A stretch of DNA of 64,000 nucleotides from Ignavibacteriota bacterium (GTDB lineage: Bacteria > Bacteroidota > Ignavibacteria > UBA10030), in NCBI GenBank assembly GCA_963701295.1, contig OY969585.1, forward strand, positions 3,424,001 to 3,488,000, given 5' to 3'. Position numbers and translations under genes: made by a program. Within the stretch, counting starts at the first letter, position 1. Every line of letters begins with the position of its first letter. A model generated the notes under the pieces. It was not told where the DNA came from. It worked only from the letters and a program-made list of their open reading frames with translations, and did no database searches. Below are positions 15,202 through 32,966 of this stretch, one piece after another.

Positions 15202-15225
15202 GTCAGCTTGAGCGCCTGGTAAGGC
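15202..15225 (-). repeat. Half attC (R''-L'' only), terminal site of array A
   Basis: gtcagcttgagcgcctggtaaggc matches the end of the full sites, but the core is mutated and the rest is missing. Confidence 0.75.
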
Positions 15226-15676
15226 CGCTGACATCAATGATCTTATCAAATACTTCTTGAGTTTTCTTTGATTGAAAGCCAACCTGTTTATAAAACATTC
15301 TTGTTTTTTCTCGTAAGATATTTGTACGAACACGAAGATGATAACACTTTTTCTCACGTGCCCAATTTTCGGCAATTGTGATAAGTCGTCTACCAATTCC
15401 TGATCCGCGAGATGATTCCGCTACAACAAGTCCGCATATTTCTACAAAAGCATTACTTTCTAATGTCTGAATAAGGGCAATGTGAATCCAACCGACGATA
15501 GAATCAAGTTCCGCAACATAAATTCCATTGTCGGATGCAGAGGATACTTTGTAAAAGCGATTTTCCATCTCTTCCGTTGTTGTTGGATAGCCGAGTTCTC
15601 CAGAAAGTTTTGCAAGAGCGACAACATCTCTTTTCTTTGCTTCACGAATAATTAGATCTTTATTCATTTGTATCAA
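15203..15676 (-). CDS. GNAT family N-acetyltransferase (cassette)
   Basis: LVVAESSRGSGIGRRL acetyl-CoA motif and FYKQVGF; flanked by attC sites. Confidence 0.9.
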   Translation of the reverse strand: MIQMNKDLIIREAKKRDVVALAKLSGELGYPTTTEEMENRFYKVSSASDNGIYVAELDSIVGWIHIALIQTLESNAFVEICGLVVAESSRGSGIGRRLITIAENWAREKKCYHLRVRTNILREKTRMFYKQVGFQSKKTQEVFDKIIDVSGLTRRSS

Positions 15677-15689
15677 ATATTTTGTTGCG

Positions 15690-15845
15690 GCCTAACGGAC
15701 CGGTGCTAAGCTGCGGCGCTGATAATTATCAATGTACACAAAACGAAACAAGTTCATTCACTTTACTTTAAAATCTGCACTGAACCTATGAGCGCAATGA
15801 CTTTTGCACTCCGCTCATTCCGTCAGCTTGAGCGCCTGGTTAGGC
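15690..15845 (-). repeat. attC-like site (156 bp)
   Basis: Top strand GCCTAAC-caggc-GCTCAAGC-TGACGG...CCGCA-GCTTAGC-accggtcc-GTTAGGC. Confidence 0.88.
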
Positions 15846-15893
15846 GCGATGTATTTTATAAGATGATAGCGTACAGTAACATAATTAACAAAT

Positions 15894-17060
15894 TTACTTT
15901 CCTTTCTTCTCCGTAACAGCAAACGGAAGAGGATCGTAGAGGGCACGACATAGTCCTTCCGTATAGTTCCCCTTGACTGCAAGATAAGAAGATACATTCG
16001 TCAGGAGAACTACACCGACATGCGTATTCCGCTCAAAAATTACTCCAGATGTATAGCCTGGGGTGGCTCCGAACGCTCCTTGATGATTTTTGCCGCGCTC
16101 ACTGTAGGGCGCCCAACCAAGCGCTCCCGAAAAGTGCTCGTTGAATTGTTTTGTTGGTTTCTGGGCGAGGTAGAAATAAGTCGTATCAGTTATGTTCGCT
16201 TTGAGATATTTCACAAGATCTTTGGCCGAGGATTTTATTCCGCCGCAGCCGGTAAGCGCACCACAATCACCATTTCCAAAAGGGAGCAAATCGCCGTTTG
16301 GATGTCTTCCCTGAACCATTCGATGTATGCGCTCTAGTGTAAGGTCAACAAATGTGTTCTTCATTCTCAAAGGTTTACACACCATTTCAAATAATATTTC
16401 TTCGTACGATTTTTTAAATACTAATGTCAGAATGTGGCCTAACAGACCACCGCCGAGATTGGAGTATGTACGCTTTTCTCCTGGCGTAGATTGTAACACC
16501 AGTTGATGTGACAGGTAATCATAGAGTCGTTCTATACTATAGTCTTTATATGGAGCATATGGATCAAAGGGATGTTTGTCATCATTCTTTACATTGATTG
16601 GCTCAAATGGCAGACCTGATGTATGTTCGGCAAGTTGAACGAGTGTTATCTCCTTCCCATTAAGGGCAGATTGATTCAAAGTGATAGGAAGATAATTCTT
16701 TATAGGATCGTTGAGGTGAACCTTCTTGTCATACACGAGCTTAGCAAGCATGGTACCAGTAAATGTCTTAGTAATGGATCCTATTTCAAAAACGCTGTCG
16801 CTGTTCTCGACGTACACTAGGGAATCGTTGCGACGCTCAATGCCAACATACTTTTCTGAATCTCCTTTGATGATACAAATAGATAGTTGCGTTCCGTTGG
16901 GGAAATACTGAGCGCGGTCATAAACGGCCTGTGCTTGCAACGAATCTAACGAATTAGGATTACTTGTAATTGGTAACTTCGCCAGTTCTCTTGCCTTAAA
17001 AGGTGAACAGGATGTAATTACCAAAATTAGAATTATGGATAAAGTTCTAATAAGACTCAT
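15894..17060 (-). CDS. Serine hydrolase, beta-lactamase/AmpC-like family, probable lipoprotein (cassette)
   Basis: Lipobox-like ITSC, SxxK (FEIGSITK), HTSGLP and YSN motifs. Confidence 0.85.
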   Translation of the reverse strand: MSLIRTLSIILILVITSCSPFKARELAKLPITSNPNSLDSLQAQAVYDRAQYFPNGTQLSICIIKGDSEKYVGIERRNDSLVYVENSDSVFEIGSITKTFTGTMLAKLVYDKKVHLNDPIKNYLPITLNQSALNGKEITLVQLAEHTSGLPFEPINVKNDDKHPFDPYAPYKDYSIERLYDYLSHQLVLQSTPGEKRTYSNLGGGLLGHILTLVFKKSYEEILFEMVCKPLRMKNTFVDLTLERIHRMVQGRHPNGDLLPFGNGDCGALTGCGGIKSSAKDLVKYLKANITDTTYFYLAQKPTKQFNEHFSGALGWAPYSERGKNHQGAFGATPGYTSGVIFERNTHVGVVLLTNVSSYLAVKGNYTEGLCRALYDPLPFAVTEKKGK

Positions 17061-17112
17061 ATTTCAATATTCTCTAATCTCAGTGGACATCAAAATTGCA
17101 TTGGCACAGCGC

Positions 17113-17307
17113 GCCTAACGGTACGGCGCTAAGCTGCGGCGCTGATAATTATCAATGTACACAAAACGAAACAAGTTCATGCTGAGAACCAAATTAATAA
17201 ATATAAAAGTTATAGGTACTAAAAACTGAATAATAAAAACGAAAATCCACCACAAGCCATGCTATTTGCAGTGAGCTCATTCCGCCAGCTTGAGCGCCTG
17301 GTTAGGC
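17113..17307 (-). repeat. attC-like site (195 bp)
   Basis: Same R''/L''/L'/R' boxes as 15690-15845 with a longer central region. Confidence 0.88.
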
Positions 17308-17397
17308 GGCAATATTAATAATAAAAAAACAGATTAAATTTCATGCCAACAAAGTTAGCGCGCCGCCTTAATTCGCTTTTTTACGGCAAATTATTCT

Positions 17398-17766
17398 CTA
17401 TTTCTTTAGATATCCAAAGCCGATTGTAATAATAGGAATACTTAAATATTTAATTCCAATCTGGCTCATATATAAGGATAATGGCATCTGCATCGGGCTT
17501 TTGGGTAGAAATAATATCAAGTCAATAACTAAATTAATTATAAGCCAAAGCAATCCCAATAAAACTCCTTCGCGAACAAAGTTTGATTCTACTTTTTTGA
17601 AGTAACGAGTCGCAAACCACACCACCGTAAAGACAATCACAACTGCCATCAAAGATTCAAACAAATAGTAATTGTAATCCTTCAATGGAAAAATAACAAA
17701 TGAAACGGCAAACGGTAGTAGCCAATCGAAGAACCCAAGCAATAAAGCTGATTTAATAGATTTCAT
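17398..17766 (-). CDS. Small 4-TM membrane protein (cassette)
   Basis: 122 aa, hydrophobic, RBS GGAG; lies between attC sites. Confidence 0.8.
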   Translation of the reverse strand: MKSIKSALLLGFFDWLLPFAVSFVIFPLKDYNYYLFESLMAVVIVFTVVWFATRYFKKVESNFVREGVLLGLLWLIINLVIDLILFLPKSPMQMPLSLYMSQIGIKYLSIPIITIGFGYLKK

Positions 17767-17852
17767 AATTACTCCAAATTATTAAATATTTTCTTTAAGA
17801 TAATTATAGATTTCCCTTCAACGTCAGCAAATTCACTAAATGAAAGATTGCC

Positions 17853-18041
17853 GGCTAACGGATGGCAACTAAGCTGCGGCAACGACAATCCGCAAGTTGC
17901 TGAAAACGAACCAAGTTCATTCTGAAAAATTTATTATTAAACATTCGAACCTCTATGCGCCATGCATAACGTACCCATTTACCCGCCATGCTTTATCTTT
18001 GGGCGGGCGCTCATCCCGTCAGCTTGAGCGCCTGGTTAGGG
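17853..18041 (-). repeat. attC-like site (189 bp)
   Basis: ggctaac...ctaagctg...cagcttgagcgcctggttaggg on the plus strand. Confidence 0.88.
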
Positions 18042-18089
18042 CGCAAGCGGACTTTTAACAGAACACCAATCGATTGCATATATTGTGAT

Positions 18090-18596
18090 TCAATCATCAA
18101 AAGCCTTAAGAAGAATCTTTTGTTTCACACTCAAGATTTTTTCAGACCTGAGGTCATAGATCTCGTAATGACCAGATGAAGTGCCGATAATTCCACCAAT
18201 GAGAAAACCGCCTGTACCTCCAAGAATCCCTCCACCTAAAGCAACAGGCCCAGGACCAAGATCGATTGCAAAGGGTTTTGGCTCTGGTTTGTGGTAGGAT
18301 TCAAAACCGATGAATGCACCTATTGCTGCACCGAACAAAAATCCTTTCCCAGCCCCATTCCAGAAAGATCCTTCCTTGAAACGTGTTAATACTGCAATAG
18401 AGTCAATAGGAATGGATATTGTTCTACAAATACATGTGGCAAAGAGAACCATATCTGGAAGGGAATCAAGCTTGCAAACACTTATTGTATCACCCGAGAA
18501 GCAGATCAACTTCCAAGCATTCTCTTGAGCCGATGAGAGTGAAACGGAAATACAAAGGATTATTATAATCACTAAGAGTGTTTTAGTTGTTTGCAT
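18090..18596 (-). CDS. Exported hypothetical protein with glycine-zipper-like segments (cassette)
   Basis: Signal-peptide-like N-terminus and GxxxG-rich hydrophobic stretches. Confidence 0.75.
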   Translation of the reverse strand: MQTTKTLLVIIIILCISVSLSSAQENAWKLICFSGDTISVCKLDSLPDMVLFATCICRTISIPIDSIAVLTRFKEGSFWNGAGKGFLFGAAIGAFIGFESYHKPEPKPFAIDLGPGPVALGGGILGGTGGFLIGGIIGTSSGHYEIYDLRSEKILSVKQKILLKAFDD

Positions 18597-18612
18597 AAAA
18601 CCTCTCTTTGTG

Positions 18613-18801
18613 CCCTAACGGACCGGCGCTAAGCTGCCGCACTGATAACTTTCAAATTGTACTAAACGAAACAAGTTCATGCTGAAAAATCTATTATTAA
18701 GAACCGAAACCTCTACGCGCAATGCTAAACGTACGCATTTACCCGTCATGCTTTATCTTTGGGCGGGCGCTCATTCCGTCAGCTTGAGCGCCTGGTTATG
18801 T
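18613..18801 (-). repeat. attC-like site (189 bp)
   Basis: ccctaac...ctaagctg...cagcttgagcgcctggttatgt on the plus strand. Confidence 0.88.
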
Positions 18802-18809
18802 TGCAATTG

Positions 18810-21800
18810 CTACTTAAGCAAAATAAGCTTCTTAGTTTGGGTAAACGCACCAGTCTGCAATATGTAAAAGTAAATTCCGCTCGATATATTTGCTGCATTC
18901 CATTGTTTAGAATAACTTCCTGCAGGCATTTCTTCAGAGACGATGGTAGCTACTTCTCTTCCAAGTATATCAAAAATCTTTAGTGATACAAATGACTTTG
19001 AAGGAATAGCAAAAGAGATTGTTGTTGTCGGATTAAAAGGGTTTGGATAATTTTGTGCAAGCGCAAACTCTTTCGGAACGATTCCAACTTGCCTTTCTAC
19101 AGGCAACGCTGGATTAATATTTGTTCTTAAATCAGGATAATTAGTTCCTGTCATTTGCCAGACAGTGGTAAAATCCCAACCGGCATTTATAAAAGTGGAT
19201 CTCGTTTTCATTTCCGCAGTGGTTTTGCCTGTACCGGCATCGCTCGTGGATTGCATGGAGGTTACTGTATCCCAAAAGGAACTGTCTACGGAACCACCAT
19301 TATTATATCCCACCAGACCGCCAATATAAGAACCCTTGCTGCTAACACTTCCGATAGAATAGCAATTGGTTACACCGCCAACATAATTTTCTCCCACCAA
19401 ACCGCCAACAGAAGAATTACCGTTAACACTTCCGGAGGAATAGCAGTTGCTCACTATGGAATAAGAATAATTTTCTCCCACCAGACCGCCAACATAAGAA
19501 TTATTACCGTTAACACTTCCGGTAGAATAGCTGTTGCTCACTGTGGAAATAGAAAAATTATCTCCCACCAAACCGCCAACAGAATAAGTTCCATTAACAC
19601 TTCCGGAGGAGTAGCAGTTGAGCACTGTGGAAGAATCATCATTATCTCCCACCAAACCACCAACATAACTATATCCGCTAACACTTCCGGAGGAGTAGCA
19701 GTAGGCCACTTCAGAATAATCATTAGCTCCCACCAAACCGCCAACATAATTTCGACCGGTTATACGTGCATTTGTAATCCCAAGAAACACAACCGCTCCA
19801 TATCTGTATCTTGTGTATCCAAATAAACCAATGAAATCAGTTGATGGACGATTAATAAATAAACTATCGATAGTATGTCCATTACCATTGTAGTGACCGG
19901 TAAAATTCGTTATATCATTCCCTATTGGCGTCCAACCGGCACCATTAAACCAACTTGAAGTTACTGATGCGTTAATATTTGCGGTTTGTATGTAGAATTT
20001 ATCCCAATTTTCCGTGTTTAATGCTATCCAGTATAGATTATTTAAAGACGCTATTTGATAAGCATTTCCGCTTGTGCCATTACCCACTGAAGGTGCTGTT
20101 GCAGTTTTTGGCAATGGAGTACCACCTGGGTTTTGCCAGGATAAGTAAGGGTATCCATTATTAAATCCAGCATCCATATACCATATTGAACTGTTCCAAC
20201 CGGCTAATGAAAAAGTTAATTTTGTTTTCATTTCCGCAGTGGTTTCACCAGTACCGCCATTACTTGTGGACTTACCGGATGTTTCAATATTCCAAAAGGA
20301 ATAGTTTACTGTGCCAAAATAATTATATCCCACCAAACCGCCAACATAAGAACCCGTCCCGCTAACACTTCCGGTAGAGTAACAATTGTTTACTGTGGCA
20401 GAATTATATCCAACTAGACCGCTGGTATATTCAGCTCCGCTAACACTTCCGGTAGAGTAACAATTGTTTACTGTGCCACTATTAGATCCTACCAGACTGC
20501 CAACAGAAGAACCCGTTCCGCTAACACTTCCGGTAGAGTAACAGTTGCTCACTGTGGAATAAAAATTCCATCCCACCAGACCGCCAACTTCACCATTACC
20601 GGTTATGTTTGCATTTGTAATCCCAATGCTGTCGATAACTCCACCATTTGTAGCTCCAAATAAACCAATGAAACTAGTTGATGGACGATTGATGAATAAA
20701 CCATCAATAGTATGTCCATTACCATTATAGGAACCGGTGAATTTCGTCGCACCATTCCCTATCGGCGTCCAACCGGCACCGCCGAACCAACTTGATGTTA
20801 CTGATGCGTTAATATTTGCAGTTTGTTCAAAATAGACTCCGGTAAAATTAGTTCCAGAATTAGCTTGAAATGCTATCCAGTACAAATTTTCTAAAGATGC
20901 TATTTGATATGGATTTCCACTTGTACCATCGCTTGCTGAGGGAGCTATTATAGTTTTTTGCAATGGAGTACCACCTGTGTTTTGCCAGGATAAGAAGGGA
21001 TATCCATTGTTTATTGATCCGTCTATTTTCCAAATAGTACCCGTATCATCCCAACCGACTAATGAAAAAGTGATTGGATTTTTCATATACACAGTAGTTA
21101 TACCTGTGCCGCCATCGCTTGTTCCACATCCAGAAGTTTGAGTATCCCAAAAGGAATTACTCACTGTGGATGAAGAATTATCCCCTATCAGACCACCTGT
21201 AGAATAACTAACTCCGCTAACACTCCCAGCAGAGTAACAATTATTTACTGCGGAATAATCATTTAATCCCATTAAACCGCCAATAGTACTATTTCCGATA
21301 ACACTTCCTGTAGAATAGCTGTTGCTTACCGGGGAATATTCATTCCTCCCCACTAGTCCACCGACACACTGCTTTCCATTAACACTTCCAGAGGAGTAAC
21401 ATTTGCTTACTGTGGAATAAAACCAATTAACTCCCACAAGACCGCCAACACAAGTGTCACCGGTTATGTTTGCATTTGTAATCCCAATGCTGTCAATAAC
21501 TGCTCCACTTGTGATTCCGAATAAACCAATGTAACCAGTTGATGGACGATTGATAAATAAACCATCAATAGTATGTCCATTACCATTATAGGAACCGGTG
21601 AATTTCGTCGCACCATTCCCTATCGGCGTCCAACCGGCACCGCTGAACCAACTTGATGTTATTGATGCATTAATGTCTGAGGTTTGTAAGTAGTATTTAT
21701 TCCAATTTGCCGTGCTTGATGCTATCCAGTACAAATTTTCTAAAGACGCTATTTGATAAGGATTTCCGCTTGTGCCAGCACCCGCTGAAGGTGGGGTAGC

Positions 21801-21863
21801 CGTTTGAGCAAACAATGTGCCTGCAAAAAGAATAAGAACTGAAACGAATAAAAAGTTTTTCAT
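18810..21863 (-). CDS. GLUG-repeat protein with T9SS C-terminal sorting domain (cassette)
   Basis: Signal peptide; three internal modules (PYQIASLENLYW...WTPIGN...GGLVG repeats); CTD NYPNPFNPTT...KKLILLK. Confidence 0.9.
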   Translation of the reverse strand: MKNFLFVSVLILFAGTLFAQTATPPSAGAGTSGNPYQIASLENLYWIASSTANWNKYYLQTSDINASITSSWFSGAGWTPIGNGATKFTGSYNGNGHTIDGLFINRPSTGYIGLFGITSGAVIDSIGITNANITGDTCVGGLVGVNWFYSTVSKCYSSGSVNGKQCVGGLVGRNEYSPVSNSYSTGSVIGNSTIGGLMGLNDYSAVNNCYSAGSVSGVSYSTGGLIGDNSSSTVSNSFWDTQTSGCGTSDGGTGITTVYMKNPITFSLVGWDDTGTIWKIDGSINNGYPFLSWQNTGGTPLQKTIIAPSASDGTSGNPYQIASLENLYWIAFQANSGTNFTGVYFEQTANINASVTSSWFGGAGWTPIGNGATKFTGSYNGNGHTIDGLFINRPSTSFIGLFGATNGGVIDSIGITNANITGNGEVGGLVGWNFYSTVSNCYSTGSVSGTGSSVGSLVGSNSGTVNNCYSTGSVSGAEYTSGLVGYNSATVNNCYSTGSVSGTGSYVGGLVGYNYFGTVNYSFWNIETSGKSTSNGGTGETTAEMKTKLTFSLAGWNSSIWYMDAGFNNGYPYLSWQNPGGTPLPKTATAPSVGNGTSGNAYQIASLNNLYWIALNTENWDKFYIQTANINASVTSSWFNGAGWTPIGNDITNFTGHYNGNGHTIDSLFINRPSTDFIGLFGYTRYRYGAVVFLGITNARITGRNYVGGLVGANDYSEVAYCYSSGSVSGYSYVGGLVGDNDDSSTVLNCYSSGSVNGTYSVGGLVGDNFSISTVSNSYSTGSVNGNNSYVGGLVGENYSYSIVSNCYSSGSVNGNSSVGGLVGENYVGGVTNCYSIGSVSSKGSYIGGLVGYNNGGSVDSSFWDTVTSMQSTSDAGTGKTTAEMKTRSTFINAGWDFTTVWQMTGTNYPDLRTNINPALPVERQVGIVPKEFALAQNYPNPFNPTTTISFAIPSKSFVSLKIFDILGREVATIVSEEMPAGSYSKQWNAANISSGIYFYILQTGAFTQTKKLILLK

Positions 21864-21902
21864 AGGTAATTCCCTTTCATTCTATCATTAAGGGTAATTG
21901 CA

Positions 21903-22060
21903 ACCTAACGGACCGGCGCTAAGCTGCGGCGCTGATAATTTTCAAAATACACAAAACGAAATGAGTTCATGCTGAATAATTTATTATTAAGAACAAAACC
22001 TCTGCACGCCATGCGTAACGTACCCAGCTGGCAACCGTCAGCTTGAGCGCCTGGTTAGGC
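21903..22060 (-). repeat. attC-like site (158 bp)
   Basis: acctaac...ctaagctg...cagcttgagcgcctggttaggc; the upstream gene's TAA lies within R''. Confidence 0.88.
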
Positions 22061-22528
22061 AGCCTGTACGTTCTTAGTAATAAATGTGACTAGTTGATCA
22101 CTTGTCGCATTACCAATCCATTGTGCTACACCAACCTCAATTACTGGTAACGCTCGGATACCTTTGTTAATAAGTGTTTCTGGTTTCAAAGTAACATCTA
22201 TTTCTTTCAGCTCGAACCCCATTTTATGTTGTAGTTCGGTAAGTCGACGTTTGACAATTGGACAGAAAGGACAACCGACACCTGTATAAAGGATGACTCT
22301 TGTGTTAACGTGTGGAATATTTTTCGGTGGAGTGTCTTCGACTGAACCATACCCCATCAATTGAGAAAGCGACGGAAAATACCGAATGTAGAGCCTGAGA
22401 AAAAGAGCGATAAATAATATCCAAAAACAAGCTTGAAGATAATCGCCTTTGATAACATAAAATATTAAGCCACATAGAAGTATAAACCAACTGCCATAGA
22501 TAAAAGAAATGTGACATTGTTGTTTCAT
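22055..22528 (-). CDS. Membrane-anchored glutaredoxin-like protein (first cassette of array A)
   Basis: Two N-terminal TM segments, CPFC motif and cis-Pro region GIRALPVI. Confidence 0.8.
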   Translation of the reverse strand: MKQQCHISFIYGSWFILLCGLIFYVIKGDYLQACFWILFIALFLRLYIRYFPSLSQLMGYGSVEDTPPKNIPHVNTRVILYTGVGCPFCPIVKRRLTELQHKMGFELKEIDVTLKPETLINKGIRALPVIEVGVAQWIGNATSDQLVTFITKNVQAA

Positions 22529-22558
22529 ATAAATATCCTCAAATAATAATCACAGGCT

Positions 22559-22616
22559 GCCTAACAATGATTAGACTGCATATTGCAGCCTAACTATTTC
22601 TCACTTCCCTTGTCAA
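22559..22616 (-). promoter_or_regulatory. attI-like entry site of array A with upstream Pc-like promoter
   Basis: Top strand TTGACA-N18-TAGGCT overlapping gttaggctgcaatatgcagtctaatcattGTTAGGC; no attC arms upstream. Confidence 0.5.
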
Positions 22617-22934
22617 TTCAGCGCTCTTCACCTTGTCTGGATAAAAAAGATTCGTCCTGTCGGCGTCTGGTGAAAACGAGATAAGTTAACTCTCCTCTCT
22701 TATCTTGTACAGTGCAAATATGCGGCATCCTCAACTCAAAATCAAGTGTTAATCGCTGCTATTTTTCTTCTGAAAACAAAAATTTTAGAAATCGATTTGC
22801 CATAGGTGACTGAAAAAAAATATCCCAAAAAATTCTGGCAGAACCACTTTGCCTTTAGGTTTAGATTGATTCCTATCCTATATCGAAGTAGAAGCTATTC
22901 CTGAAACTCTTGTAAGGCTTAAAAGCGGGTCCCA

Positions 22935-23150
22935 TATTCGACATTTCGCCATATTGACAATGTCAATTGGCAAGATCGATCTTGTCATTTGTCATTTTGC
23001 AATTCCCCTATAGATTTTGACAAGATGACAATATCATAATTTGCCATTTTGCCATTTCGCCAATCACCTATAGAACGTGGCAAAACTTCATGACAATATG
23101 ATATTGACATCGCCGTCAATTCTCTAAGGTGCTGGCAAGATGACAAGATG
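22935..23150. repeat. Cluster of 8-bp-period inverted repeats around CTATAG-type cores (origin/iteron-like)
   Basis: Examples: ttgccattttgccatttcgcca-atcacctatagaacg-tggcaaaa and ttgtcattttgcaa-ttcccctatagattt-tgacaagatgacaa. Confidence 0.65.
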
Positions 23151-23188
23151 CTAAAGAAAAGCGCAGCACGTCGCGCTCTTCTCTGTCG

Positions 23189-23655
23189 TCATAGATAGAC
23201 GACAGCTTTTTGTTGGAGGGATTGTCGGAGGGATGGAATGTTGCGGGTGTGTCTTGAAATGTCTTTCATCGAATACCCAGCGGTTATGTCATCGAGAAAT
23301 AATCGTTCCTCGGCAGTTAGAGATTCCAGAAAGTTATTTGTGATCGCATAATCTAACGGATTGATCTTGACCGGAAGCTGAAACTCTCCGAGTGTCATTG
23401 GCCTGTCGATGTAAACACGGTCGTGATTCCAAGCATCAAGTTCACTTTTGCCAACTTCTTTTGCGGAAAATGCTGATCTACGATTTAATTCTTTCGAACG
23501 AAAATGCATCATTGACTTCATAAGTCCTAGTGTGCAGCATTTGCCAAGCCTCTCTCCTTCTTTCCAAGCTATAGTAACAAGCTCTGATCTCTGGAATTTG
23601 TCTCGCGTAAACTGTTCGCTATAATGCCACAATCTTCGTATTCTTGTTCGCTCAT
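23189..23655 (-). CDS. Hypothetical protein with possible C-terminal HTH (probable 1-bp frameshift near 23610)
   Basis: RBS AAGGAG and ATG at 23655. One extra T joins MSEQEYEDCGIIANS to FTRDKFQ...; C-terminus LTAEERLFLDDITAGYSMKDIS resembles a sigma region 4/LuxR HTH. Confidence 0.6.
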
Positions 23656-24661: not shown

Positions 24662-24768
24662 ATCAAGCCCCGTCATCGATGGGGCTTTTTTATTGCTCGA
24701 ACCAGAAGCGGTGATGGTTGCCGCGTTTTTTTATCTTGAAATTCAAACAAATAAAGTGTAGAGTTCCG
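24662..24768 (+). repeat. Tandem terminators plus promoter module (family B, copy 1)
   Basis: AAGCCCCGTCATCGATGGGGCTTTTTT, then TCGAACCAGAAGCGGTGATGGTTGCCGCGTTTTTTT, then TTGAAA-N17-TAGAGT. Confidence 0.7.
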
Positions 24769-24805
24769 GTATCCAATATATGAGTTAGCAGACGAAAGGA
24801 TATTT

Positions 24806-25237: not shown

Positions 25238-25351
25238 ACTAGTTTATCAATTCAATCTGCTGCCGCCTAACTACCGCTCAATCGGCAAGATTACACATCG
25301 GATGTGTCGTTCCAGAATGACGATGTAAGAGCAATTTGTTCGAGTTTGTTC

Positions 25352-25379
25352 ATTGCTCGAACCAGAAGTGGTGATAGTT
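25352..25379 (+). repeat. Family B partial copy
   Basis: attgctcgaaccagaagtggtgatagtt. Confidence 0.6.
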
Positions 25380-25551: not shown

Positions 25552-25618
25552 AATTGTCGACCTTTTATGCCTAATAGTCATGAATTGTCGACTCAGTCGA
25601 CCTAATCAGTAGTTAGGC
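25552..25618 (+). promoter_or_regulatory. attI-like entry site of array B
   Basis: Direct repeat AATTGTCGAC (25552, 25583), then cctaatcagtaGTTAGGC. The core extension gttaggcgggcaac pairs with the cassette end gttgccagctaac. Confidence 0.5.
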
Positions 25619-25650
25619 GGGCAACGAATAACATAACAAGGACAACCTCA

Positions 25651-26235
25651 ATGAAGAATATCGAAACCCTAAAGCAAGCGATAATTCGTTGTTTTACCAT
25701 CTCTGGATTGATAATCGCAATCGCTTTTTTAATTTATCGGGCTGAAGTTTTTACTCCAACAATGTGGCCATTCCAATTTCTTGTTTCAGGCATTACGATA
25801 GGGATAGCATTTACTACATTTCGAGAAAAGAATTATTGAGGAGGTCTTGCATTATTATTACTTTGGTACCTTGTTCTTACCATCCCAACTTCGCAAGGCA
25901 ATTCTTGGATATTCATTCTAGAAGGTGTGTATACAGTCATCATATCTGCAGCAGTCTATTTATACATTCATATTGCTGGGAAATCATTCATAAAAAATGA
26001 AATATCCCGAATTGTCACTTCTACTTTAGTCATCGGGATATTCAACTCTCTGAATATTCTTGTCTTAAGTCTATATACTCTTCAATCGCTATTTAGCCAT
26101 TTTCCAAGCATAGTAGATGCAATGTTTCTGAATTTGAAGATTGGAGCAATGCTCGGTTTGTTTATGGGAGTAGGGATTGAGTTGGCAGATTATCTAATCG
26201 ATGCATTGTACAAGGGCAAGGACGTTGCCAGCTAA
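25651..26235 (+). pseudogene. Multi-TM membrane protein cassette interrupted by in-frame TGA at 25837
   Basis: ORFs 25651-25839 and 25927-26235 are in the same frame with hydrophobic sequence on both sides; final TAA lies in the attC R'' box. Confidence 0.7.
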
Positions 26236-26416
26236 CCAGCAACTCAAGCTGACAGAATGAGCGCCCGCCCAAAGATAAAGCATGGCGGGTAAATGGGTAC
26301 GTTAAGCATGGCGTGCAAAGGTTTTGTTTAATTTGAAAGTTGGGTATAATGAACTTGTTTCGTTGGGTACATTTTGAAACTTATCAACGCCGCAGCTTAG
26401 TTGCCGTCCGTTAGTT
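26230..26416 (+). repeat. attC-like site (187 bp), opposite orientation to array A
   Basis: AGCTAAC-cagca-ACTCAAGC-TGAC...CCGCA-GCTTAGT-tgccgtcc-GTTAGTT. Confidence 0.88.
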
Positions 26417-26445
26417 GCAATTGCCCGTTCTCAGGAGGAACAAGT

Positions 26446-26814
26446 ATGACCGTCACGTATCATTGCTTTCGAATTCTCTACTCTATTGGCTGCCATCGTT
26501 GTTCTTTGGAGCAGCGTACCCACCACGCAGACCAAGAATGGAGGGATAAGCCCAAGAAAGTCAAGACAGTATTAACAGTTGTTCTGCTTCTGGTTGTATG
26601 GAATAATCAATCAAACTCCCAAGCTAAGAATTGCTATGTAGATGCCACCGGCGGATCGGATGCAAACAACGGCTTATCACCTTCATCAGCATGGAAGACC
26701 ATTGATAGGGTCAACGCGCCAACGTTTGCACCGGGGGATTCCATTCTGTTTAAAAGAGGAGAAACATTCAAAGGTGACGGCGTTTCGGGCCACAGGGGGG
26801 GCAACTACAACTAG
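26446..26814 (+). pseudogene. Truncated right-handed beta-helix (pectate-lyase-like) protein cassette
   Basis: RBS AGGAGG; YVDATGGSDANNGLSPSSAWKTIDRVN...PGDSILFKRG, then an abrupt stop at a degenerate R'' (gggcaactacaactagc). Confidence 0.65.
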
Positions 26815-27027
26815 CAAACGGCAACACGACGCTCTAGTGTTTGAAAGGATATTAAAGATATTGCTCGATCCCGCTTAGCTCCACAAAGTACCTCTTTGAT
26901 ATATTTTTTTAAAGGAGGCTTTTTTATAACTTGATATGTTCTTATCAATTCCGAGAACTAATAAAGAGCTTCCATATCGAATAAAATGAACACATCCTCA
27001 CTCGCGAGTGCAGGCTGTACCCGAATG

Positions 27028-28770
27028 TTATTTCATTAAAATTATCTTGCACGATTTTGTTTCGTATGGCGCTGTTAGTCGGCAAATATATATTCCACTC
27101 GAAAGTGCCCGACTGTTTTCATCCCGGCAATTCCATCGCGCGATATGTTCTCCATTTTTTTCGACGTTGTTGATCAATCCGCACACCTTTTGTCCGATTA
27201 CATTATAGATGTCTATCTCAACTTGTTCAGTTACTGGAAGTGTATAACGTATGATTATATCCGAAGTGCTGGCCGGATAGGGATTCGGTCCAGATGATAA
27301 ACTCAGGCGTTGATTGTTTTCATGCGAATTCGACACTGAGACAGCATGTACAAATTCACCATCAATCTGAATCTCCCAGAGAGCATATCCATATGATGTA
27401 CCCCGTCTGTTTCCGTGCCACCGTACATATCGTGCTTCGGTAGGCGGGACAGAAAGAAATTCAGTACCACCGTTGCCGCTTGTTGTCGTATAGATTGTCG
27501 TCCATGTCTGCTTATCGGAAGAAACATCAATGGTATAAGCCAATCCATAGGATGTTCCCCAGAAAAGAGTAATATGTTTGATCCGATAAATTCCCTGTAA
27601 ATCAACCGAAATCCACTGCGGATCGCTAGAGGGGGTTGTCCATCTGGTTGAAAAATCTCCGTCGAAAACATTCGACGCCTTTAGTGAATTGTCGGCGAGT
27701 GCTGAATATTCGCATGGCTTGTTAAGAGCGATATTTGGCAGCAGTACATCGATCTTTTTAAAGTTCGAAGAAATTTCCGTTGTTCCGTCTTCGAAGAATG
27801 CTTTCGCGTGGATGAGATACTCGTTTTGAGTCAGATTGTTCACAGTAATTGTATAAGGAGGTGTAGATGATTCTCCAATTTTTATTGAGTCGGAAAAATA
27901 TTCAATCCTTGTCACGGGAGTATCCGATACGACGCTTGCGTTTAATTGAATAGTTGCAGGAGTTTCGTAAAATAAATTCACTGGCGAAGTTAATAGTACC
28001 TTCTTCTCCCGTTGGGGATGGTTATAGAAAAAATCGACTACGAGATCTGTGCAATTGATCGGATAATTCAACCATGTATGACCGCCGTGAGCATACGTGA
28101 CGAACTCAACATCTGCGCCGGTTTCAACGGCCGGCCATAGTTGAGCGATTGTCCCACCATAGTTGTACACTGTGTCTGGTGTGGCCGAACATTGGTTTTT
28201 TTGCCGCCAGGCAGCCAATCCGGCTTGATCCGGGCTGTAGGGAACAGTGGCATCATCCACGGCATGAATTGCAAGAACTGGTTTTGGTGAAGGAATTGCC
28301 TGACTGGATCCTGTCCAGTATCCCGCTACCGGCGCGATTGCCGCAATTATTTCCGGTAATTGAGCTCCCAGCGTGTAACAAAAAAATGCTCCATCCGAAT
28401 GTCCGGTTACATAGACACGTTTTGAGTCGATATGAAACTTTTTCTGGAGAGTATCCAGGAGAACAGAGACGAAATCAATGTCATTGTCGTGGGAGTTCCA
28501 TCCTCCGCCAACGACAGCACTGGGATAAACAACGAAATAGTTCATAACTTCCGATCGTTCATTGAATCCGCTTTTAAACAATGCGCTGTCCGTGCCGCTC
28601 AATCCGTGAAAAACAAAAATTAATGGATACGATGTAGAACCGTCGTATGACGCGGGCACATGGACGAGATATGCTCTATTGTATCCGTTGTGCATCATGA
28701 ATTGTTCCTGGGCTGCCAGATGGTAGAAGGAGAGACATAAAACCAAACAACTCAAAATTATTTTCATCAC
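27028..28770 (-). CDS. Secreted esterase (PHB-depolymerase/CE1-like) + Ig-like + F5/8 type C domain + T9SS-like CTD
   Basis: PLIFVFHG, GHSDG nucleophile, HAVDD, GGHTW; FDGDFSTRW..QWISVDL discoidin; CTD YNVIGQKV..GIYICRL. Confidence 0.85.
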   Translation of the reverse strand: MMKIILSCLVLCLSFYHLAAQEQFMMHNGYNRAYLVHVPASYDGSTSYPLIFVFHGLSGTDSALFKSGFNERSEVMNYFVVYPSAVVGGGWNSHDNDIDFVSVLLDTLQKKFHIDSKRVYVTGHSDGAFFCYTLGAQLPEIIAAIAPVAGYWTGSSQAIPSPKPVLAIHAVDDATVPYSPDQAGLAAWRQKNQCSATPDTVYNYGGTIAQLWPAVETGADVEFVTYAHGGHTWLNYPINCTDLVVDFFYNHPQREKKVLLTSPVNLFYETPATIQLNASVVSDTPVTRIEYFSDSIKIGESSTPPYTITVNNLTQNEYLIHAKAFFEDGTTEISSNFKKIDVLLPNIALNKPCEYSALADNSLKASNVFDGDFSTRWTTPSSDPQWISVDLQGIYRIKHITLFWGTSYGLAYTIDVSSDKQTWTTIYTTTSGNGGTEFLSVPPTEARYVRWHGNRRGTSYGYALWEIQIDGEFVHAVSVSNSHENNQRLSLSSGPNPYPASTSDIIIRYTLPVTEQVEIDIYNVIGQKVCGLINNVEKNGEHIARWNCRDENSRALSSGIYICRLTAPYETKSCKIILMK

Positions 28771-28890
28771 TTTTCCTTTTGTTCTTCGTATTAACTTTTC
28801 TATAATTTACTATATTTTTTAAATGATTTTTATAGCAGCACTTAATTTTATCCTCACATTTCTAACATTCCAAATCCTCATTAGCTCCAC

Positions 28891-28917
28891 AAAAAAGGCG
28901 CTCAATGAGCGCCTTTT
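28891..28917. terminator. Bidirectional intrinsic terminator
   Basis: AAAAAAGGCGCTCAATGAGCGCCTTTT hairpin flanked by A and T tracts. Confidence 0.65.
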
Positions 28918-29103
28918 GCTTTTCGTCCCCAGATACAATCTACTATATTATTGTGACTTCGATACGTCCAAATCTATAAAACGATTTGGACTATTCAGTC
29001 ATCGGCTTTTAGGTAAGATCAGTGAGTAGTGCCTATTTTATCGGCAAATATCGAACCGATAACTTTGCTCTGAATATTCATAATACCAATTCTTCCCAAT
29101 TTT

Positions 29104-29565
29104 TCATTTCATCAAGCACATCTTCATTGCTTGCGAATGATTGCCGGTTTTAATCCTGCAGAGATACATACCGCAGATAAGTCCGGAGCCGTTGAATTCT
29201 TGATTAATAGGTAGAGTTTTAATTTTGCCACCTTCATAAATTCGACTTGGCGGATGCAAGGCATCTAATCGATATACCTTTACAAGAAGTGTTTCATTTG
29301 CCGACCATTTGAATCCTTTCAAATCAACCGTGAGAGTATCTTTGATAGGTTGCTCAATGACCATTCGAGCTTTTTTAGTCTCAATGTCATATATCCATAA
29401 AAGACGATGATTATCTGAGTATAACCATACTGGAATTGCTAAATAGCGACCGTTAGGAGAAAAAAAAAGCATCATAAAGGACTTCTCGAATTCGATCCTT
29501 GCCGTAAATATTAGCATAGAAATCGCACATAAGTTCAGAAACTGGTTCGGCATGTGCACAACCAT
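29104..29565 (-). pseudogene. Chimeric gene remnant (beta-propeller-like fragment fused to the tail of a T9SS CTD)
   Basis: FSPNGRYLA..LWIYDIET followed by GMYLCRIKTG..KMCLMK; no signal peptide. Confidence 0.5.
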
Positions 29566-29669
29566 CGTAACGTGTAATTATTGAATCCTGAGATTTTGCG
29601 CAAGAAAATAAAAAAAGATTATTACAAATAATAATTCATTGTGCATTAATAGATTTCCTTATAAATGCC

Positions 29670-29710
29670 AACTAACGGATGACGGCTAAGCTGCCGCCTT
29701 GATAATTTTC
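29670..29710 (-). repeat. Half attC (L'-R' only)
   Basis: aactaacggatgacggctaagctgccgccttgataattttc; the R''/L'' arm is absent and the site nearly abuts the stop of the upstream gene. Confidence 0.75.
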
Positions 29711-29721
29711 ATATTATAAGT

Positions 29722-32151
29722 TCATTTCATCAAAATCAGTTTCTTTGTTTCTGCATAGGAACCAGCTTGCAGTCGATAGAAATATATTCCACTTGCTAAA
29801 TTATTTGTATTCCATTGTTTTGTGTAATTTCCTGCCGACATTTCTTCAGAGACAATGGTTGCCATTTCTCTACCTAACAGATCAAATATTTTCAATGATA
29901 CAAACGATCTCAATGGAAGAGTAAATGAAATAGTTGTGGCTGGATTAATCGGGTTGGGGTAGTTTTGCCCGAGGTTGAATGTTTTCGGTATTATGATTGA
30001 TGCGTTTTCAATTCCGGTGCGTGTGTAATCGGACCCATCATACGGAATCAGATCCGTTACCCCAGTCATATTATTTCTCGGAATGAACTGTAGTTTGTTG
30101 TTCGCCAGGAATTTGACCGTACCAAGATATTTTGGTGTATTATAAACGGAATCTCGTAAAACCGCGGCCCATTGCACCGTTGCCCGCCTGCCATTGCCAT
30201 CGTTGTCGCTCTGATTAATTGCCATACCGAAAATATTATTGACTGAAGGTATTATTGCCTCATTGCCACTATTGATGGCTGACCAGTTGACTGCTAGTTC
30301 TAATGCATATCCTCCAGGAATGATTCTTCGTGCCCACTGCTTCAGTGAATCGGGTACGCTATTCAGATTGTCCGCAGCAACTACTCCTGGCGTAGACATG
30401 CCCAGTGCTGTTAAACGTGTACTCCATATCGAATTTGTCATACTATCTGTCGGCTGTGGATCGATTTTGAGTTCGAGGCAATCATTGAACCATACAGTAG
30501 CGGAATTTCCAGAAAGAATGTTGTCCTTGACCTCTTCGTAGAGATAGAACCATTGGTCGTCCCATGCCGTCCATATCTTTGCCGAAAGATCGGCATCGTT
30601 TACCGGGGCGCCATTGTTGTTGTATGCATAAGAACGGATCTGAAGATAGCCGTCGTTAGGACCGGTTAATGCATTATAGAATGTATCTTTCAATCCATCG
30701 ATCACAATGGGGGCACTGTTCATGCTTTCAAAATTACCATGAACCAGAAACTCCCACAATGAATATTGATATGTTGTCCCCCGTTTAGTTCCGTGCATTC
30801 TCACGTAATGAGCATCAACCGGAGGGAAAGATATATATTCAGTGCCTCCATTTCCCGAAGTAGTGCCGTAAACTGTTGTCCAATTATTATTATCTTCCGA
30901 GACGTCGATGGTATAGGCAAGTGCATACGATGTTTCCCAGAAGAGCGTAACGCCGGTGATTTTATAAATTCCCTGAAGGTCTATGGAAATCCACTGAGGA
31001 TCAGAGCCCTCACTTGACCAACGCGATGTGAAATCACCGTCAAAGGCATATTGTGCAAAAAGGTTAGGAATAATAGAAAAAATGCTGGAACTGTTGGTTG
31101 GTTTATGAAGAGCAACACTCGGCAGAATAACATGGACTTTTTTCAGATTTGATGATACCATGCTCGTTCCATCGGCAAAAGAAGCTTTTGCAAAGAGTAT
31201 GTAATCGTTGGGCTGAACTTTATTCCAGAGAAATGTATAAGGCGCAATAGAGCTTTCGGATAGTTTATCCGCGTTTGCATAAAACTCAACTTTTGTTACT
31301 GCTGTATCCGACTCGATTTCTGCGCTCAATTGGATGTCTGGATTAGCATTATAAAATGTGATTACCGGTGAGGTTAACGTTACTTTCGATTTTTGTTTAG
31401 GGTGTGTCAAGAAAAAATCGACGATAAGATCGGTGCAATGTAGAGGGTAAATAAACCACGCATGCCCCCCGTGACTATAAACGTACAGCACAACATCAGC
31501 GCCAGTTCCCGGGGCCGTCCATTCTCGACCAACAACTCCGTTTGAATTATAAAGTGTATCTGCTTTATTCGAACATTTATTCTCGTTTCTCCAATGAGTC
31601 AGGATTGTATCAACACCCGATGTACCCCCGTACGCAACCATAGGATCATCTATGGCATGAATATGGATGATGGGCATCGGTGAAGAAATACTACTTATCA
31701 GACTGCTTTTTAATAATCCTGCAACGGGAGCTATTGCACAAATTTTTGTCGGCAATTTAACAGCCAGGGTATAGCATAAGAATGCACCCAACGAATGACC
31801 GGTAGCATAAACCCTCGTGGTATCGATATTATAATTCGCTTTTAGGGTATCAATTAATTCGGAAATAAAATTAACGTCCACATTGCCCTCGAGATCCCAT
31901 ACTCCACCGGATCCTCTCGGATAAACTGCAATGTAACCCATGATTTCAGCCCGTTCATTGAATCCATTTTTGTAAAGTGTGCTGTCGTTTCCTCCGCTTC
32001 CATGAAGCACAATTATGAGCGGATATGCTGATGAACCATCATAGCACTTAGGAACATAGAGAAGGTAAGATCTATTATTGATAAAATGCTCCTGCGCCAA
32101 AAGCTGGGAGAAGGAGAGGTAAGTTACAAGAATGATTAAAATAGTTTTCAT
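29722..32151 (-). CDS. Secreted esterase + Ig-like + F5/8 type C + CBM9-like domain + T9SS CTD (cassette)
   Basis: GHSLG, HAIDD, GGHAW; discoidin motif; DLSAKIWTAWDDQWFYL..VKD CBM9-like region; CTD NYPNPINP..KKLILMK. Paralog of 27028-28770. Confidence 0.85.
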   Translation of the reverse strand: MKTILIILVTYLSFSQLLAQEHFINNRSYLLYVPKCYDGSSAYPLIIVLHGSGGNDSTLYKNGFNERAEIMGYIAVYPRGSGGVWDLEGNVDVNFISELIDTLKANYNIDTTRVYATGHSLGAFLCYTLAVKLPTKICAIAPVAGLLKSSLISSISSPMPIIHIHAIDDPMVAYGGTSGVDTILTHWRNENKCSNKADTLYNSNGVVGREWTAPGTGADVVLYVYSHGGHAWFIYPLHCTDLIVDFFLTHPKQKSKVTLTSPVITFYNANPDIQLSAEIESDTAVTKVEFYANADKLSESSIAPYTFLWNKVQPNDYILFAKASFADGTSMVSSNLKKVHVILPSVALHKPTNSSSIFSIIPNLFAQYAFDGDFTSRWSSEGSDPQWISIDLQGIYKITGVTLFWETSYALAYTIDVSEDNNNWTTVYGTTSGNGGTEYISFPPVDAHYVRMHGTKRGTTYQYSLWEFLVHGNFESMNSAPIVIDGLKDTFYNALTGPNDGYLQIRSYAYNNNGAPVNDADLSAKIWTAWDDQWFYLYEEVKDNILSGNSATVWFNDCLELKIDPQPTDSMTNSIWSTRLTALGMSTPGVVAADNLNSVPDSLKQWARRIIPGGYALELAVNWSAINSGNEAIIPSVNNIFGMAINQSDNDGNGRRATVQWAAVLRDSVYNTPKYLGTVKFLANNKLQFIPRNNMTGVTDLIPYDGSDYTRTGIENASIIIPKTFNLGQNYPNPINPATTISFTLPLRSFVSLKIFDLLGREMATIVSEEMSAGNYTKQWNTNNLASGIYFYRLQAGSYAETKKLILMK

Positions 32152-32189
32152 AATCTATATTTCTTTCTTGAGTTGTTAAGAGCAATTGC

Positions 32190-32376
32190 GCCTAACGGAT
32201 TGTGGCTAAGCTGCCGCACTGATAATTTTCAAAATACACAAAACGAAACAAGTTCATTGTAAGTACTTTCAAATTAAACCGAAACCTATGTCAGCCTTGC
32301 TTAACGTACCCATTTACCCGCCATGCTTTATCTTTGGGCGGGCGCTCATTCCGTCAGCTTGAGTTGCTGGTTAGCT
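32190..32376 (-). repeat. attC-like site (187 bp)
   Basis: gcctaac...ctaagctg...cagcttgagttgctggttagct on the plus strand. Confidence 0.88.
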
Positions 32377-32384
32377 GGGCGGCA

Positions 32385-32916
32385 TTAGAAACAGATGCCT
32401 ATACTACTGCCAAACCACAACTTGAATAATCCAGTGTATGGAGAAAGAAACGGTGTTGCGAATAACCGAAAATGTATTCCACCATCTGATGGTTGATAAC
32501 GGTATCCAAGCGAACCAACAAATACAACACCTGAACTAGAACTGTTGGTTTTAACTTGCGATATATCACCTGAGGATTCTCCGTTGGATATCAGATAGTC
32601 CATTCCCGCCCCGATTTCAAATTTGCTATTTCCATTCCCAAGTAAATAGTTGAAAATGATTGGGACGATATAAATCGGTACTGTGATCTCTTCCACTGTT
32701 AAAATTGAGATCGAATATTGAAAGCCCAACGCGGATGGTAAAGTCATTCGAAACAAATCGCTCATAATTTACCGAATAGAAAACACCAGATCCAAAAGCT
32801 TCCACATAGATTGCATTCCGTGAATCAGGAGACTGAGACAAACTTGGAGTGGATAGAACTATAATCCCTATACCAGCAAGTATGACTATTCTATAGAAAG
32901 ATTGAAATATCATCAT
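32385..32916 (-). CDS. Outer membrane beta-barrel protein cassette (1-bp frameshift near 32725)
   Basis: Two overlapping ORFs join into signal-NAIYVEAFG..SVNYER..VG-FQYS..LGYRYQP..FGSSIGICF. Cassette ends pair perfectly (gttagctgggcggca). Confidence 0.75.
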
Positions 32917-32932
32917 AATTATTTTGCCGCCC

Positions 32933-32966
32933 AGCTAACGGATTGGCGCTAAGCTGCGGTGCTGAA
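32933..32966 (-). repeat. Half attC (L'-R' only)
   Basis: agctaacggattggcgctaagctgcggtgctgaa; no matching cagcttgag..gttag arm nearby. Confidence 0.75.

Follow-up and report, generated by a model that had tools for sequence, protein, structure and literature searches.

Clusters of attC sites lacking an integron integrase (CALINs) are an established class of element (Cury et al. 2016, PMC4889954; IntegronFinder 2.0, PMC9024848). Four origins have been listed for them, including loss of the integrase gene intI and rearrangement, and intI pseudogenes were found near 15 of 279 CALINs in a study that left attI aside (PMC4889954). CALINs can be mobilised in trans (10.1101/2025.06.18.660453), and complete integrons in Ignavibacteriae are already in print (PMC9024848). 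The origin and the continued use of CALINs have been open since the class was defined, and the genome of the Ignavibacteriota bacterium studied here (3.64 Mb in one contig, C1) offers a clean natural case. The window, a stretch of 64,000 nucleotides (C1:3424001-3488000), carries integrase-less cassette arrays of an atypical attC family, which an earlier note made from the sequence alone had described as a satellite island at 15202..32966. Its main array, array A, begins with its own copy of attI, holds no intI and is probably supplied in trans by the single integron integrase (IntI) of the genome, encoded 120 kb away.

Results

An integrase-less array headed by attI

Array A lies on the minus strand. 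Its parts are given below in reading order, in window positions (ORF, open reading frame; pfold, probability of the R-plus-L fold of the bottom strand with DNA parameters; aa, amino acids; T9SS, type IX secretion system).

22.6-15.2 kb, minus strand: array A overall, attI followed by six cassettes, the last with a truncated attC at ~15200
22595..22770, minus strand: module upstream of attI, ~176 nt, matching the flank of the attI copy at C1 position 1796906 with 94% identity across 176 nt
22561..22594, minus strand: attI-like site, a single palindromic unit (TTAGGCTGCAATATGCAGTCTAA) followed by the simple site CTAAT-CATT-GTTAG; crossover G at 22565
21909..22564, minus strand: cassette 1, glutaredoxin-like membrane protein, ORF 22055-22528 (Pfam Glrx-like, Glutaredoxin)
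21903-22060, minus strand: attC of cassette 1, 158 nt, pfold 0.26
18619..21908, minus strand: cassette 2, 1017-aa GLUG-repeat protein with T9SS sorting tail, ORF 18810-21863 (Pfam); end match 9/10
18613-18801, minus strand: attC of cassette 2, 189 nt, pfold 1.7e-4
17859..18618, minus strand: cassette 3, 168-aa protein, ORF 18090-18596
17853-18041, minus strand: attC of cassette 3, 189 nt, mismatched arms GGCGCT vs AGTTGC, pfold 1e-9
17119..17858, minus strand: cassette 4, 122-aa protein without Pfam match, ORF 17398-17766
17113-17307, minus strand: attC of cassette 4, 195 nt, pfold 0.34
15696..17118, minus strand: cassette 5, serine hydrolase of the beta-lactamase fold, 388 aa, ORF 15894-17060 (PF00144, E 1.4e-44)
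15690-15845, minus strand: attC of cassette 5, 156 nt, pfold 0.28
15200..15695, minus strand: cassette 6 at the distal end, GNAT acetyltransferase, ORF 15203-15676
~15200-15222, minus strand: truncated attC of cassette 6, R''-L'' only

The cargo consists of ordinary accessory genes, whose products are acetyltransferase, serine hydrolase, glutaredoxin-like and T9SS-secreted surface proteins.

The attI beside intI, read on the cassette strand, consists of unit A (GTTAGGCTGCAATATGCAGTCTAAC), a 15-nt linker, unit B (ATTAGGCTGCGGTATGCAGTCTAAT) and the spacer CAGA, after which G|TTAGGC forms the start of the first cassette. It has the properties expected of an attI, being situated between intI and the first cassette, carrying a GTTRRRY core at the junction and being conserved together with intI in relatives. 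In the window a single unit is followed by CATT and G|TTAGGCAGCCTGT; this copy is identical to unit A at 24 of 24 positions and to unit B plus spacer at 31 of 35, and is the predicted attI docking site at the head of array A. Copies of attI head six further arrays besides the one at intI, giving a total of seven (C1 positions 224105, 1796906, 2464754, 2834110, 3172052 and the window), and a degenerate eighth copy was found at 2387953. The seven first cassettes are all different. Their R'' extensions match the sequence following G|TT at 14/14 positions in the window and 1.797-Mb copies, at 13/14 in three copies and at 9/14 in two. The six two-unit copies are mutually 89-100% identical over 73 nt, while the adjoining DNA (120-195 nt) is only 22-82% identical in 14 of the 15 pairs and 92% in the remaining one. 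Homologous intI-attI intergenic DNA is kept in five copies, and the 2.4645-Mb copy retains ~24 nt of the intI 5' end, corresponding to ~8 codons. The window and 1.797-Mb copies cease to be homologous to the others precisely at the unit's outer G|TTAGGC. The module at 22595..22770 may be the seat of a cassette promoter. No intI remnant was found upstream of the attI copies, and a reading by eye, without Pfam, of the ORFs that precede the eight copies showed no gene in common.

The earlier note had missed the attI copy, and its picture of a satellite island has to be given up as far as the main array is concerned, which is no passive heap of cassettes. Since the arrays keep attI and intI-attI intergenic DNA, former integrons that lost intI are the most likely origin. 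Array A would then most likely be one of at least seven attI-headed platforms descended from integrons minus intI.

One match above the IntI-model cut-off was obtained in the whole genome (TIGR02249, 453 bits versus 265), at C1:3566721-3567662 on the plus strand and 120 kb from the attI of the window. It is an open frame of 319 aa, residues 7-318 of which align with VchIntIA (PDB 2A3V, E 4e-86); this alignment shows the catalytic motifs, namely R, K, HxxR, H and Y. The complete integron of the genome occupies C1:3.550-3.5677 Mb. In the search of related loci, with the own genome excluded, the closest IntI relatives were at most 63% identical and came from metagenome-assembled genomes of several phyla. 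The window itself holds no intI, its lone tyrosine recombinase (~37.7-38.5 kb) scoring 32.7 bits against the cut-off of 265, and tblastn with IntI beside the attI of the window detected no intI remnant, the nearby matches being generic tyrosine recombinases. Both the absence of intI from the window and its presence elsewhere, here on the same chromosome, are therefore as the earlier note had it. A C-terminal fragment of a second intI, 45 residues long, lies at C1:581744-581878; its identity to the intact gene, 97.8% in protein and 78% in DNA, suggests that it was left by a second, diverged integron.

With intI not standing beside attI and cassettes, the window does not contain a complete integron, and its arrays, clustering at least two attC sites with no intI nearby, are CALINs by definition. 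The integrase-less arrays reported by the earlier note are thus real, yet belong to an already established category (PMC4889954).

The repeats as integron attC sites

Read on the minus strand, a site consists of RYCTAAC, CA, a 6-nt variable half-stem, C, AAGCTG, A, 3 nt and the centre (~100-145 nt in the window), followed by 3 nt, CAGCTT, the 6-nt partner of the half-stem, 5 nt and GTTAGGC. The 5'-arm pattern (R''-side L box) gave nine matches in the window against 1.40 expected, a number reached in none of 100 shuffles; eight of them lie inside the region 15202..32966, and the ninth, at 37718 with two mismatches, is probably due to chance. The 3'-arm pattern also matched nine times (0.14 expected), always within this region. 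In a repeat search of the window the arms and pieces of the centre came out as the families D5, D7, D10, D13, D15 and D17. The arm patterns and the repeat search recovered all seven full sites and three half sites of the earlier note at their positions. Those outside array A belong to two smaller arrays, B and C:

33.0-29.1 kb, minus strand: array B overall, half site, attC 32190-32376, 809-aa esterase cassette and 153-aa ORF
32925..32979, minus strand: half attC at the start of array B, part of the central region plus L'-R', without attI
32190..32376, minus strand: attC of array B, 187 nt, mismatched arms, pfold 2.5e-4
29662..32189, minus strand: cassette of array B, 809-aa protein with esterase, F5-8 type C and CBM9 domains and T9SS tail, ORF 29722-32151
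29662-29716, minus strand: half attC of the 809-aa cassette, 3' part only (L'-R')
25602..25616, plus strand: tentative diverged attI-like simple site of array C, palindrome GTCGAC-TCA-GTCGAC, then CTAAT-CAGTA-GTTAG, 614 nt before the attC
26230..26416, plus strand: attC of array C (25.6-26.8 kb), 187 nt, with ORFs 25651-26235 and 26401-26814 (plus strand) on either side, pfold 0.57

Genes and sites on the minus strand are co-oriented, as had been noted; this does not hold for site 26230 and its genes, which are on the plus strand. Nor is the region a plain cassette array throughout: the segment at 22.6-26.2 kb is not one, and between 22.6 and 25.6 kb no cassette of this attC family was found. 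This part instead carries a 147-aa ORF resembling helix-turn-helix (HTH) proteins, iteron-like repeats and, on the plus strand, genes for an outer-membrane protein (OMP) beta-barrel and a DUF3592 protein. In array B the cassette start GTTAGCTGGGCGGCA matches the R'' extension of site 32190-32376 in reverse complement. The cassette at 32385-32916 (minus strand) shows overlapping ORFs of 96 and 126 aa, possibly a single frameshifted gene. The simple site at 25602-25616 is one of nine matches to the simple-site pattern, out of 40 genome-wide, that have an attC on the same strand at a distance of up to 4 kb; of the remaining eight, seven correspond to the attI copies. It is a weak candidate, its end match with the R'' of the cassette, read by eye, being 8/14 ungapped. 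Arrays B and C are probably truncated or rearranged pieces of the integron system of array A.

The lack of a clear attI at arrays B and C would suit a different origin, in which the distant IntI put cassettes into non-att genomic sites, a route that has been proposed for CALINs (Cury 2016, PMC4889954; Loot et al., 10.1101/2022.09.11.507474). This explanation is highly improbable here, as array A and six other arrays begin at an attI copy and five of them keep homologous intI-attI intergenic DNA, and as the truncated attC at which array B begins suggests that this array was cut and did not arise by a new insertion. Descent from integrons by loss of intI is accordingly preferred.

Pairing of the arms over the whole genome gave 118 sites, one of which, a 297-nt pairing at 1509311, was dropped as spurious; the counts below refer to the remaining 117 sites, which form 15 clusters. 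The top-strand C at position 16 is unpaired in 116 of them and the A at position 23 in 112, with the 6-bp stem AAGCTG/CAGCTT between the two bulges, giving bottom-strand G16 and T23. The canonical rule for attC, required by IntI1, consists of the extrahelical bottom-strand bases G16 and T23/24 with a 6-bp stem between them (Nivina et al. 2016, PMC5027507). The R''-L'' arm and both extrahelical bases are therefore as described in the earlier note, and both the arm on the R'' side and these two bases are fully canonical. In the R''/R' cores (RYYYAAC / GTTRRRY) the inner four pairs are formed in 101-116 of the 117 sites, and the outer three are variable because they belong to the next cassette. 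The half-stems covary, the pair types at the variable positions being GC/CG, CG/AT/GC and GC/AT/GT. On average 7.92 of the nine variable pairs are formed, compared to 6.85 +/- 0.10 (maximum 7.19) in 2000 partner shuffles, and all nine are formed in 65 sites, where 24.6 were expected. Folding of the bottom strands gave the R/L hairpin with its extrahelical bases, with pfold above 0.1 in 58 of the 117 sites and in four of the seven full sites of the window.

The cassette ends provided an independent signature. For the 100 cassettes lying between two sites, the 10 nt following the upstream GTTA were compared with the R'' extension of the same cassette in reverse complement, and on average 6.96 of 10 nt matched, against 4.34 for the start of the next cassette and 4.21 for random cassette starts. 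A match of at least 9/10 was reached by 48 of the own starts and by three of the 100 next-cassette starts (Wilcoxon p = 1.4e-12). In the window, all four cassettes tested match past the core, at 7-9 of 10 nt, so that the match beyond the 7-bp core reported by the earlier note was borne out, as it was by the complete match of the first cassette after attI. Such an end footprint is the classic sign that gene and site were once a circle inserted at G|TT. Judged by these sequence features, the repeats are genuine integron attC sites; their recombination as a folded strand would rest on the identical cassettes bounded at G|TT that are described in the next section.

The central 100-180 nt, conserved in blocks without consensus pairing, are atypical of a textbook attC and could bring to mind another intergenic repeat, for example one like a repetitive extragenic palindrome or miniature inverted-repeat transposable element, a family of terminators or a gene for a small RNA. 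All defining features of the attC arms are present, however, the repeats and intI are found together throughout the genus, and no Rfam family matched over threshold at 14-34 kb. We consider the probability of such a repeat to be negligible and retain the assignment to attC.

Probable cassette exchange in trans

Comparison of 107 cassette bodies of the genome yielded 17 pairs mutually covering at least 80%, none of them with homologous neighbours. Four pairs in different arrays are 100% identical; none of these arrays adjoins an intI, and the flanks are unrelated. The largest identical segment comprises a body of 1815 nt plus an attC of 153 nt and is shared by arrays at C1:235999-236157 and C1:2475707-2475865, 2.24 Mb apart; its identity stops no more than 5 nt from G|TT at either end. 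The other three perfect pairs, with bodies of 282 and 306 nt, connect arrays located at 231 kb, 2.479/2.486 Mb and 3.166 Mb. The left limit of identity lies 2-5 nt beyond G|TT in every one of the four pairs, and the right limit 5-9 nt past the G in three of them and 10 nt short of it in the fourth. If the attC repeats on both sides had mediated gene conversion, the tracts would not end at the crossover each time, and we therefore favour transfer of the integrase type in trans. The identical cassettes point to recent integrase action in trans, putatively by the one IntI of the genome, among its integrase-less arrays. Given their position in the middle of the arrays, they would be evidence for events of the attC x attC type and not for insertion at the integrase-less attI copies.

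The cumulative GC skew placed the origin of replication at ~0.96 Mb (dnaA at 977 kb) and the terminus at ~2.70 Mb. With respect to these, the bottom strand lies on the leading-strand template at 96 of 117 sites and in 13 of 15 clusters, the exceptions being a 20-site array at 225-245 kb, where the GC skew is locally reversed, and the plus-strand site of the window. The same orientation was reported for 25 of 30 sedentary integrons and limits excision (Loot et al., PMC5371416).

Unusual attC geometry

With the distance left free, the L'-R' spacer measured 8 nt in 106 of 116 arm pairs of the genome; two were one nucleotide shorter, two were spurious and six lacked GTTA. This agrees with the 8 nt given in the earlier note. 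Three bases of the spacer pair with the 5-nt R''-L'' spacer, leaving an asymmetric internal loop of 2 x 5 nt. Instead of an unpaired central spacer of about 5-6 nt in each arm, 2 nt and 5 nt thus remain unpaired, and the deviation is a change of geometry in which no feature is lost.

The 117 sites are 120-231 nt long (62 at 150-159 nt, 35 at 180-199 nt and eight above 200 nt), the size classes differing by insertion modules. These eight sites would escape a 200-nt size limit, and 200 nt is the default maximum attC size of IntegronFinder. Published attC sites measure 57-141 bp, with a central region of 20-100 nt, down to 3 nt in mobile integrons (PMC5027507, PMC4889954). The family falls outside both ranges: the sites exceed the published length, as the earlier note had pointed out, and the region between the arms spans 99-178 nt in all but about six shorter sites. 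Blocks in the centre, for instance TCAGCATGAACTTGTTTCGTT, are 80-99% conserved. RNAalifold recovered the L stem on both strands, and found no consensus pairing in the central region of either the short class (n=68) or the long class (n=34) on either strand, in line with the earlier description of the centre as conserved but mostly non-palindromic. An Rfam scan of 14-34 kb at E <= 1 returned no family, the single match (mir-31) scoring 22.8 bits against a gathering score of 51, and a search of the conserved block by eye for a Bacteroidetes-type promoter or a site of the integration host factor type gave nothing consistent.

Distribution in the genus and in metagenomes

The attC 5'-arm pattern was found in the genomes of all 15 other species of the genus (1-141 matches each), compared to 0-4 matches in each of 25 genomes outside it, so that the family is indeed lineage-specific, as had been supposed. 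An intI over the cut-off was present in 12 of the 15 genus genomes, with two matches each in G001, G007 and G010, and the attI motif, with at most three mismatches, in 10. Two intI genes in some relatives fit an origin of the platforms by intI loss from several former integrons. The attI motif is situated ~200 nt from intI in G001, G009, G010, G011 and G012, and in G009 a single-unit attI adjoins intI. Upstream of the intI of G007 (IntI 72% identical) the same attI layout is seen with stems that are changed but still palindromic, and upstream of that of G006 (61% identical) a reduced form. Stems of the attI unit also vary between species at the loci L103, L104, L106, L107 and L108, yet stay palindromic (GCTGCA/TGCAGT versus GCTGA/TCAGC, for example), which suggests a hairpin or a symmetric binding site. 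Extra copies of the motif far from any intI match occur in G001, G004, G006, G009 and G013; the intI-less attI platform would hence be a trait of the genus. For the platform of the window, no orthologous locus was fixed within the genus, because the flank upstream of attI, consisting of the HTH-like ORF and a ~180-nt repeat, is itself multi-copy.

In peat and permafrost metagenome contigs, the bins of attC sequence reached very high summed depth. One peat contig matched 15838-17121, covering the hydrolase cassette, with 64 differences and was unlike the window past the cassette ends; another matched 22035-22565, covering the glutaredoxin-like cassette, with 27 differences and was unlike the window past the crossover G. 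Because contigs break at repeats, they constitute weak support for the modularity of the cassettes. Joints between attC sites in metagenome contigs were set aside, their sides being shorter than 31 nt and lying within the repeat family. Among the sequencing runs searched with sampled words of 15.1-23.1 kb, none held more than 7% of them, and no RNA run was listed as a holder.

Neighbouring features

Just upstream of the attI module, dense short repeats of the TTGTCA/TGACAA type, reminiscent of iterons, extend over 22940-23180 beside the 147-aa ORF (23189-23632, minus strand), whose C-terminus is HTH-like and which, together with the adjoining ~180-nt repeat, is multi-copy in genome and genus. 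A 34-nt repeat, 88% identical between its copies at 24686-24719 and 25346-25379 (plus strand), follows the OMP beta-barrel and the DUF3592 gene, respectively; it is distinct from the attC family, and its first copy adjoins a terminator-like hairpin. The 13-nt direct repeat TTAGCTCCACAAA (two matches versus 0.10 expected), at 26875-26887 and 28881-28893, brackets a 580-aa esterase gene (27028-28770) that is paralogous to the gene in the 809-aa cassette. The repeat's first copy lies in a stretch resembling a tRNA 3' end, and the two copies may represent the att sites of a small inserted element. A 444-aa ORF (33130-34464, minus strand) immediately upstream of the truncated start of array B is phage tail-fibre-like; besides a Peptidase_S74 (endosialidase chaperone) domain it has 51-nt tandem repeats, seven in all. 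Finally, two tRNA-Ser genes (GCT and TGA) are located at 12329-12566 on the minus strand, ~2.6 kb past the truncated distal end of array A.

Discussion

The observations are best accounted for by a scheme in which the platform of array A would descend from a once complete integron that lost its intI, and the distant IntI would still insert and excise cassettes in this array. The very long unstructured central loop and the position of the bottom strand on the leading-strand template would keep excision rare and the arrays stable.

Several points weigh against this scheme, and most of them are what would be expected if the arrays were fossils, that is, remains of dead integrons or pieces split off by rearrangement that no longer recombine and whose cassettes have become fixed as chromosomal genes. 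Three attC sites of the window, at 15200, 29662 and 32925, are mere halves. Fold probability is below 1e-3 in 46 of the 117 sites, including three of the seven full sites in the window, where it ranges from 1e-9 to 2.5e-4. At most four of six pairs are formed in the first half-stem of 30 of the 117 sites, with those at 17853 and 32190 among them. This poor pairing results mostly from the 5' arm of one subtype facing the 3' arm of another; as the G|TT crossover of the integrase cannot yield such hybrids, they probably arose by homologous recombination via the conserved centres and are a sign of decay. The attI of the window is cut to one unit instead of two. The bottom strand's leading-strand template position and the loop of ~100-145 nt both disfavour folding (PMC5371416, PMC5027507). 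As to exchange, no near-identical copy of any window cassette exists elsewhere in the genome, so that none of the perfectly identical pairs includes array A and current activity there is inferred; the identical cassettes sit in mid-array and not beside attI, and, the assembly being a single contig, segments without any difference might in principle have been produced by the assembly itself.

Even so, we consider fossil arrays unlikely. The attI copies are far better kept than their flanks, and a one-unit attI like that of the window adjoins an intact intI in G009. Four of the seven window sites fold well. Cassettes were exchanged without a single substitution between other integrase-less arrays of the same genome, and two window cassettes recur at ~95% identity in peat contigs that diverge at the cassette ends. 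Continued service of array A by the distant IntI is therefore the preferred reading. The earlier proposal that the cassettes gather under an integrase encoded elsewhere is upheld by the intI on the same chromosome, with the restriction that service in trans was seen for other arrays and is extended to that of the window.

Going further, the genome might harbour a distributed integron, in which one integrase serves at least seven attI platforms dispersed along the chromosome and selection keeps the orphan attI copies intact. Core-type heptamers flank the attI element on either side, and the integrase could possibly relocate it as it does a cassette; the long attC loop could act as a brake that stabilises the arrays. 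We put this forward tentatively, as a possibility that we would not yet expect to hold.

Compared to CALINs as defined (PMC4889954), the arrays share the occurrence of two or more attC sites, the lack of an intI nearby and a replicon that encodes IntI elsewhere. Unlike in that description, an identifiable attI is kept here, other copies hold intI-attI intergenic DNA and one of them ~8 intI codons, and seven platforms face one intI. A literature search of titles and abstract openings found no paper on several attI copies sharing one intI; this genome may be among those tabulated in the supplements to the IntegronFinder papers.

With sedentary chromosomal integrons, such as the Vibrio cholerae superintegron with its repeats (VCR), the system shares a homogeneous, lineage-specific attC family and many cassettes mostly of unknown function. 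Bottom strands are likewise found mostly on the leading-strand template, at 96 of 117 sites here and in 25 of 30 sedentary integrons (PMC5371416). There, however, one array stands behind one attI, whereas the genome studied here has 15 clusters and several attI copies. The attC sites of sedentary integrons measure mainly 120-129 bp (PMC5371416), as opposed to 120-231 nt with a centre without consensus pairing.

The integrons of Xanthomonas (10.1101/2025.06.18.660453) are similar in that the system is ancestral to the genus and CALINs occur away from intI, at conserved loci, in about half of the genomes. The available text of that study mentions no attI at the CALINs and describes intI as often inactivated; here attI is present and intI intact.

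Finally, canonical attC sites of mobile integrons such as attCaadA7 and attCoxa2 (PMC5027507) share with the present family the R''/R' cores, the L box, G16 and T23 with the 6-bp stem and the 5-nt R''-L'' spacer. Their L'-R' spacer is usually 5-6 nt long (PMC5027507), in contrast to 8 nt and an internal loop of 2 x 5 nt in this family, which extends the range of attC geometry to an 8-nt spacer and loops of up to 178 nt. Relative to the available parts of the papers compared, the new features are this attC geometry, the orphan attI copies that head CALINs and are much better conserved than their flanks, and the perfect cassette copies among integrase-less arrays.

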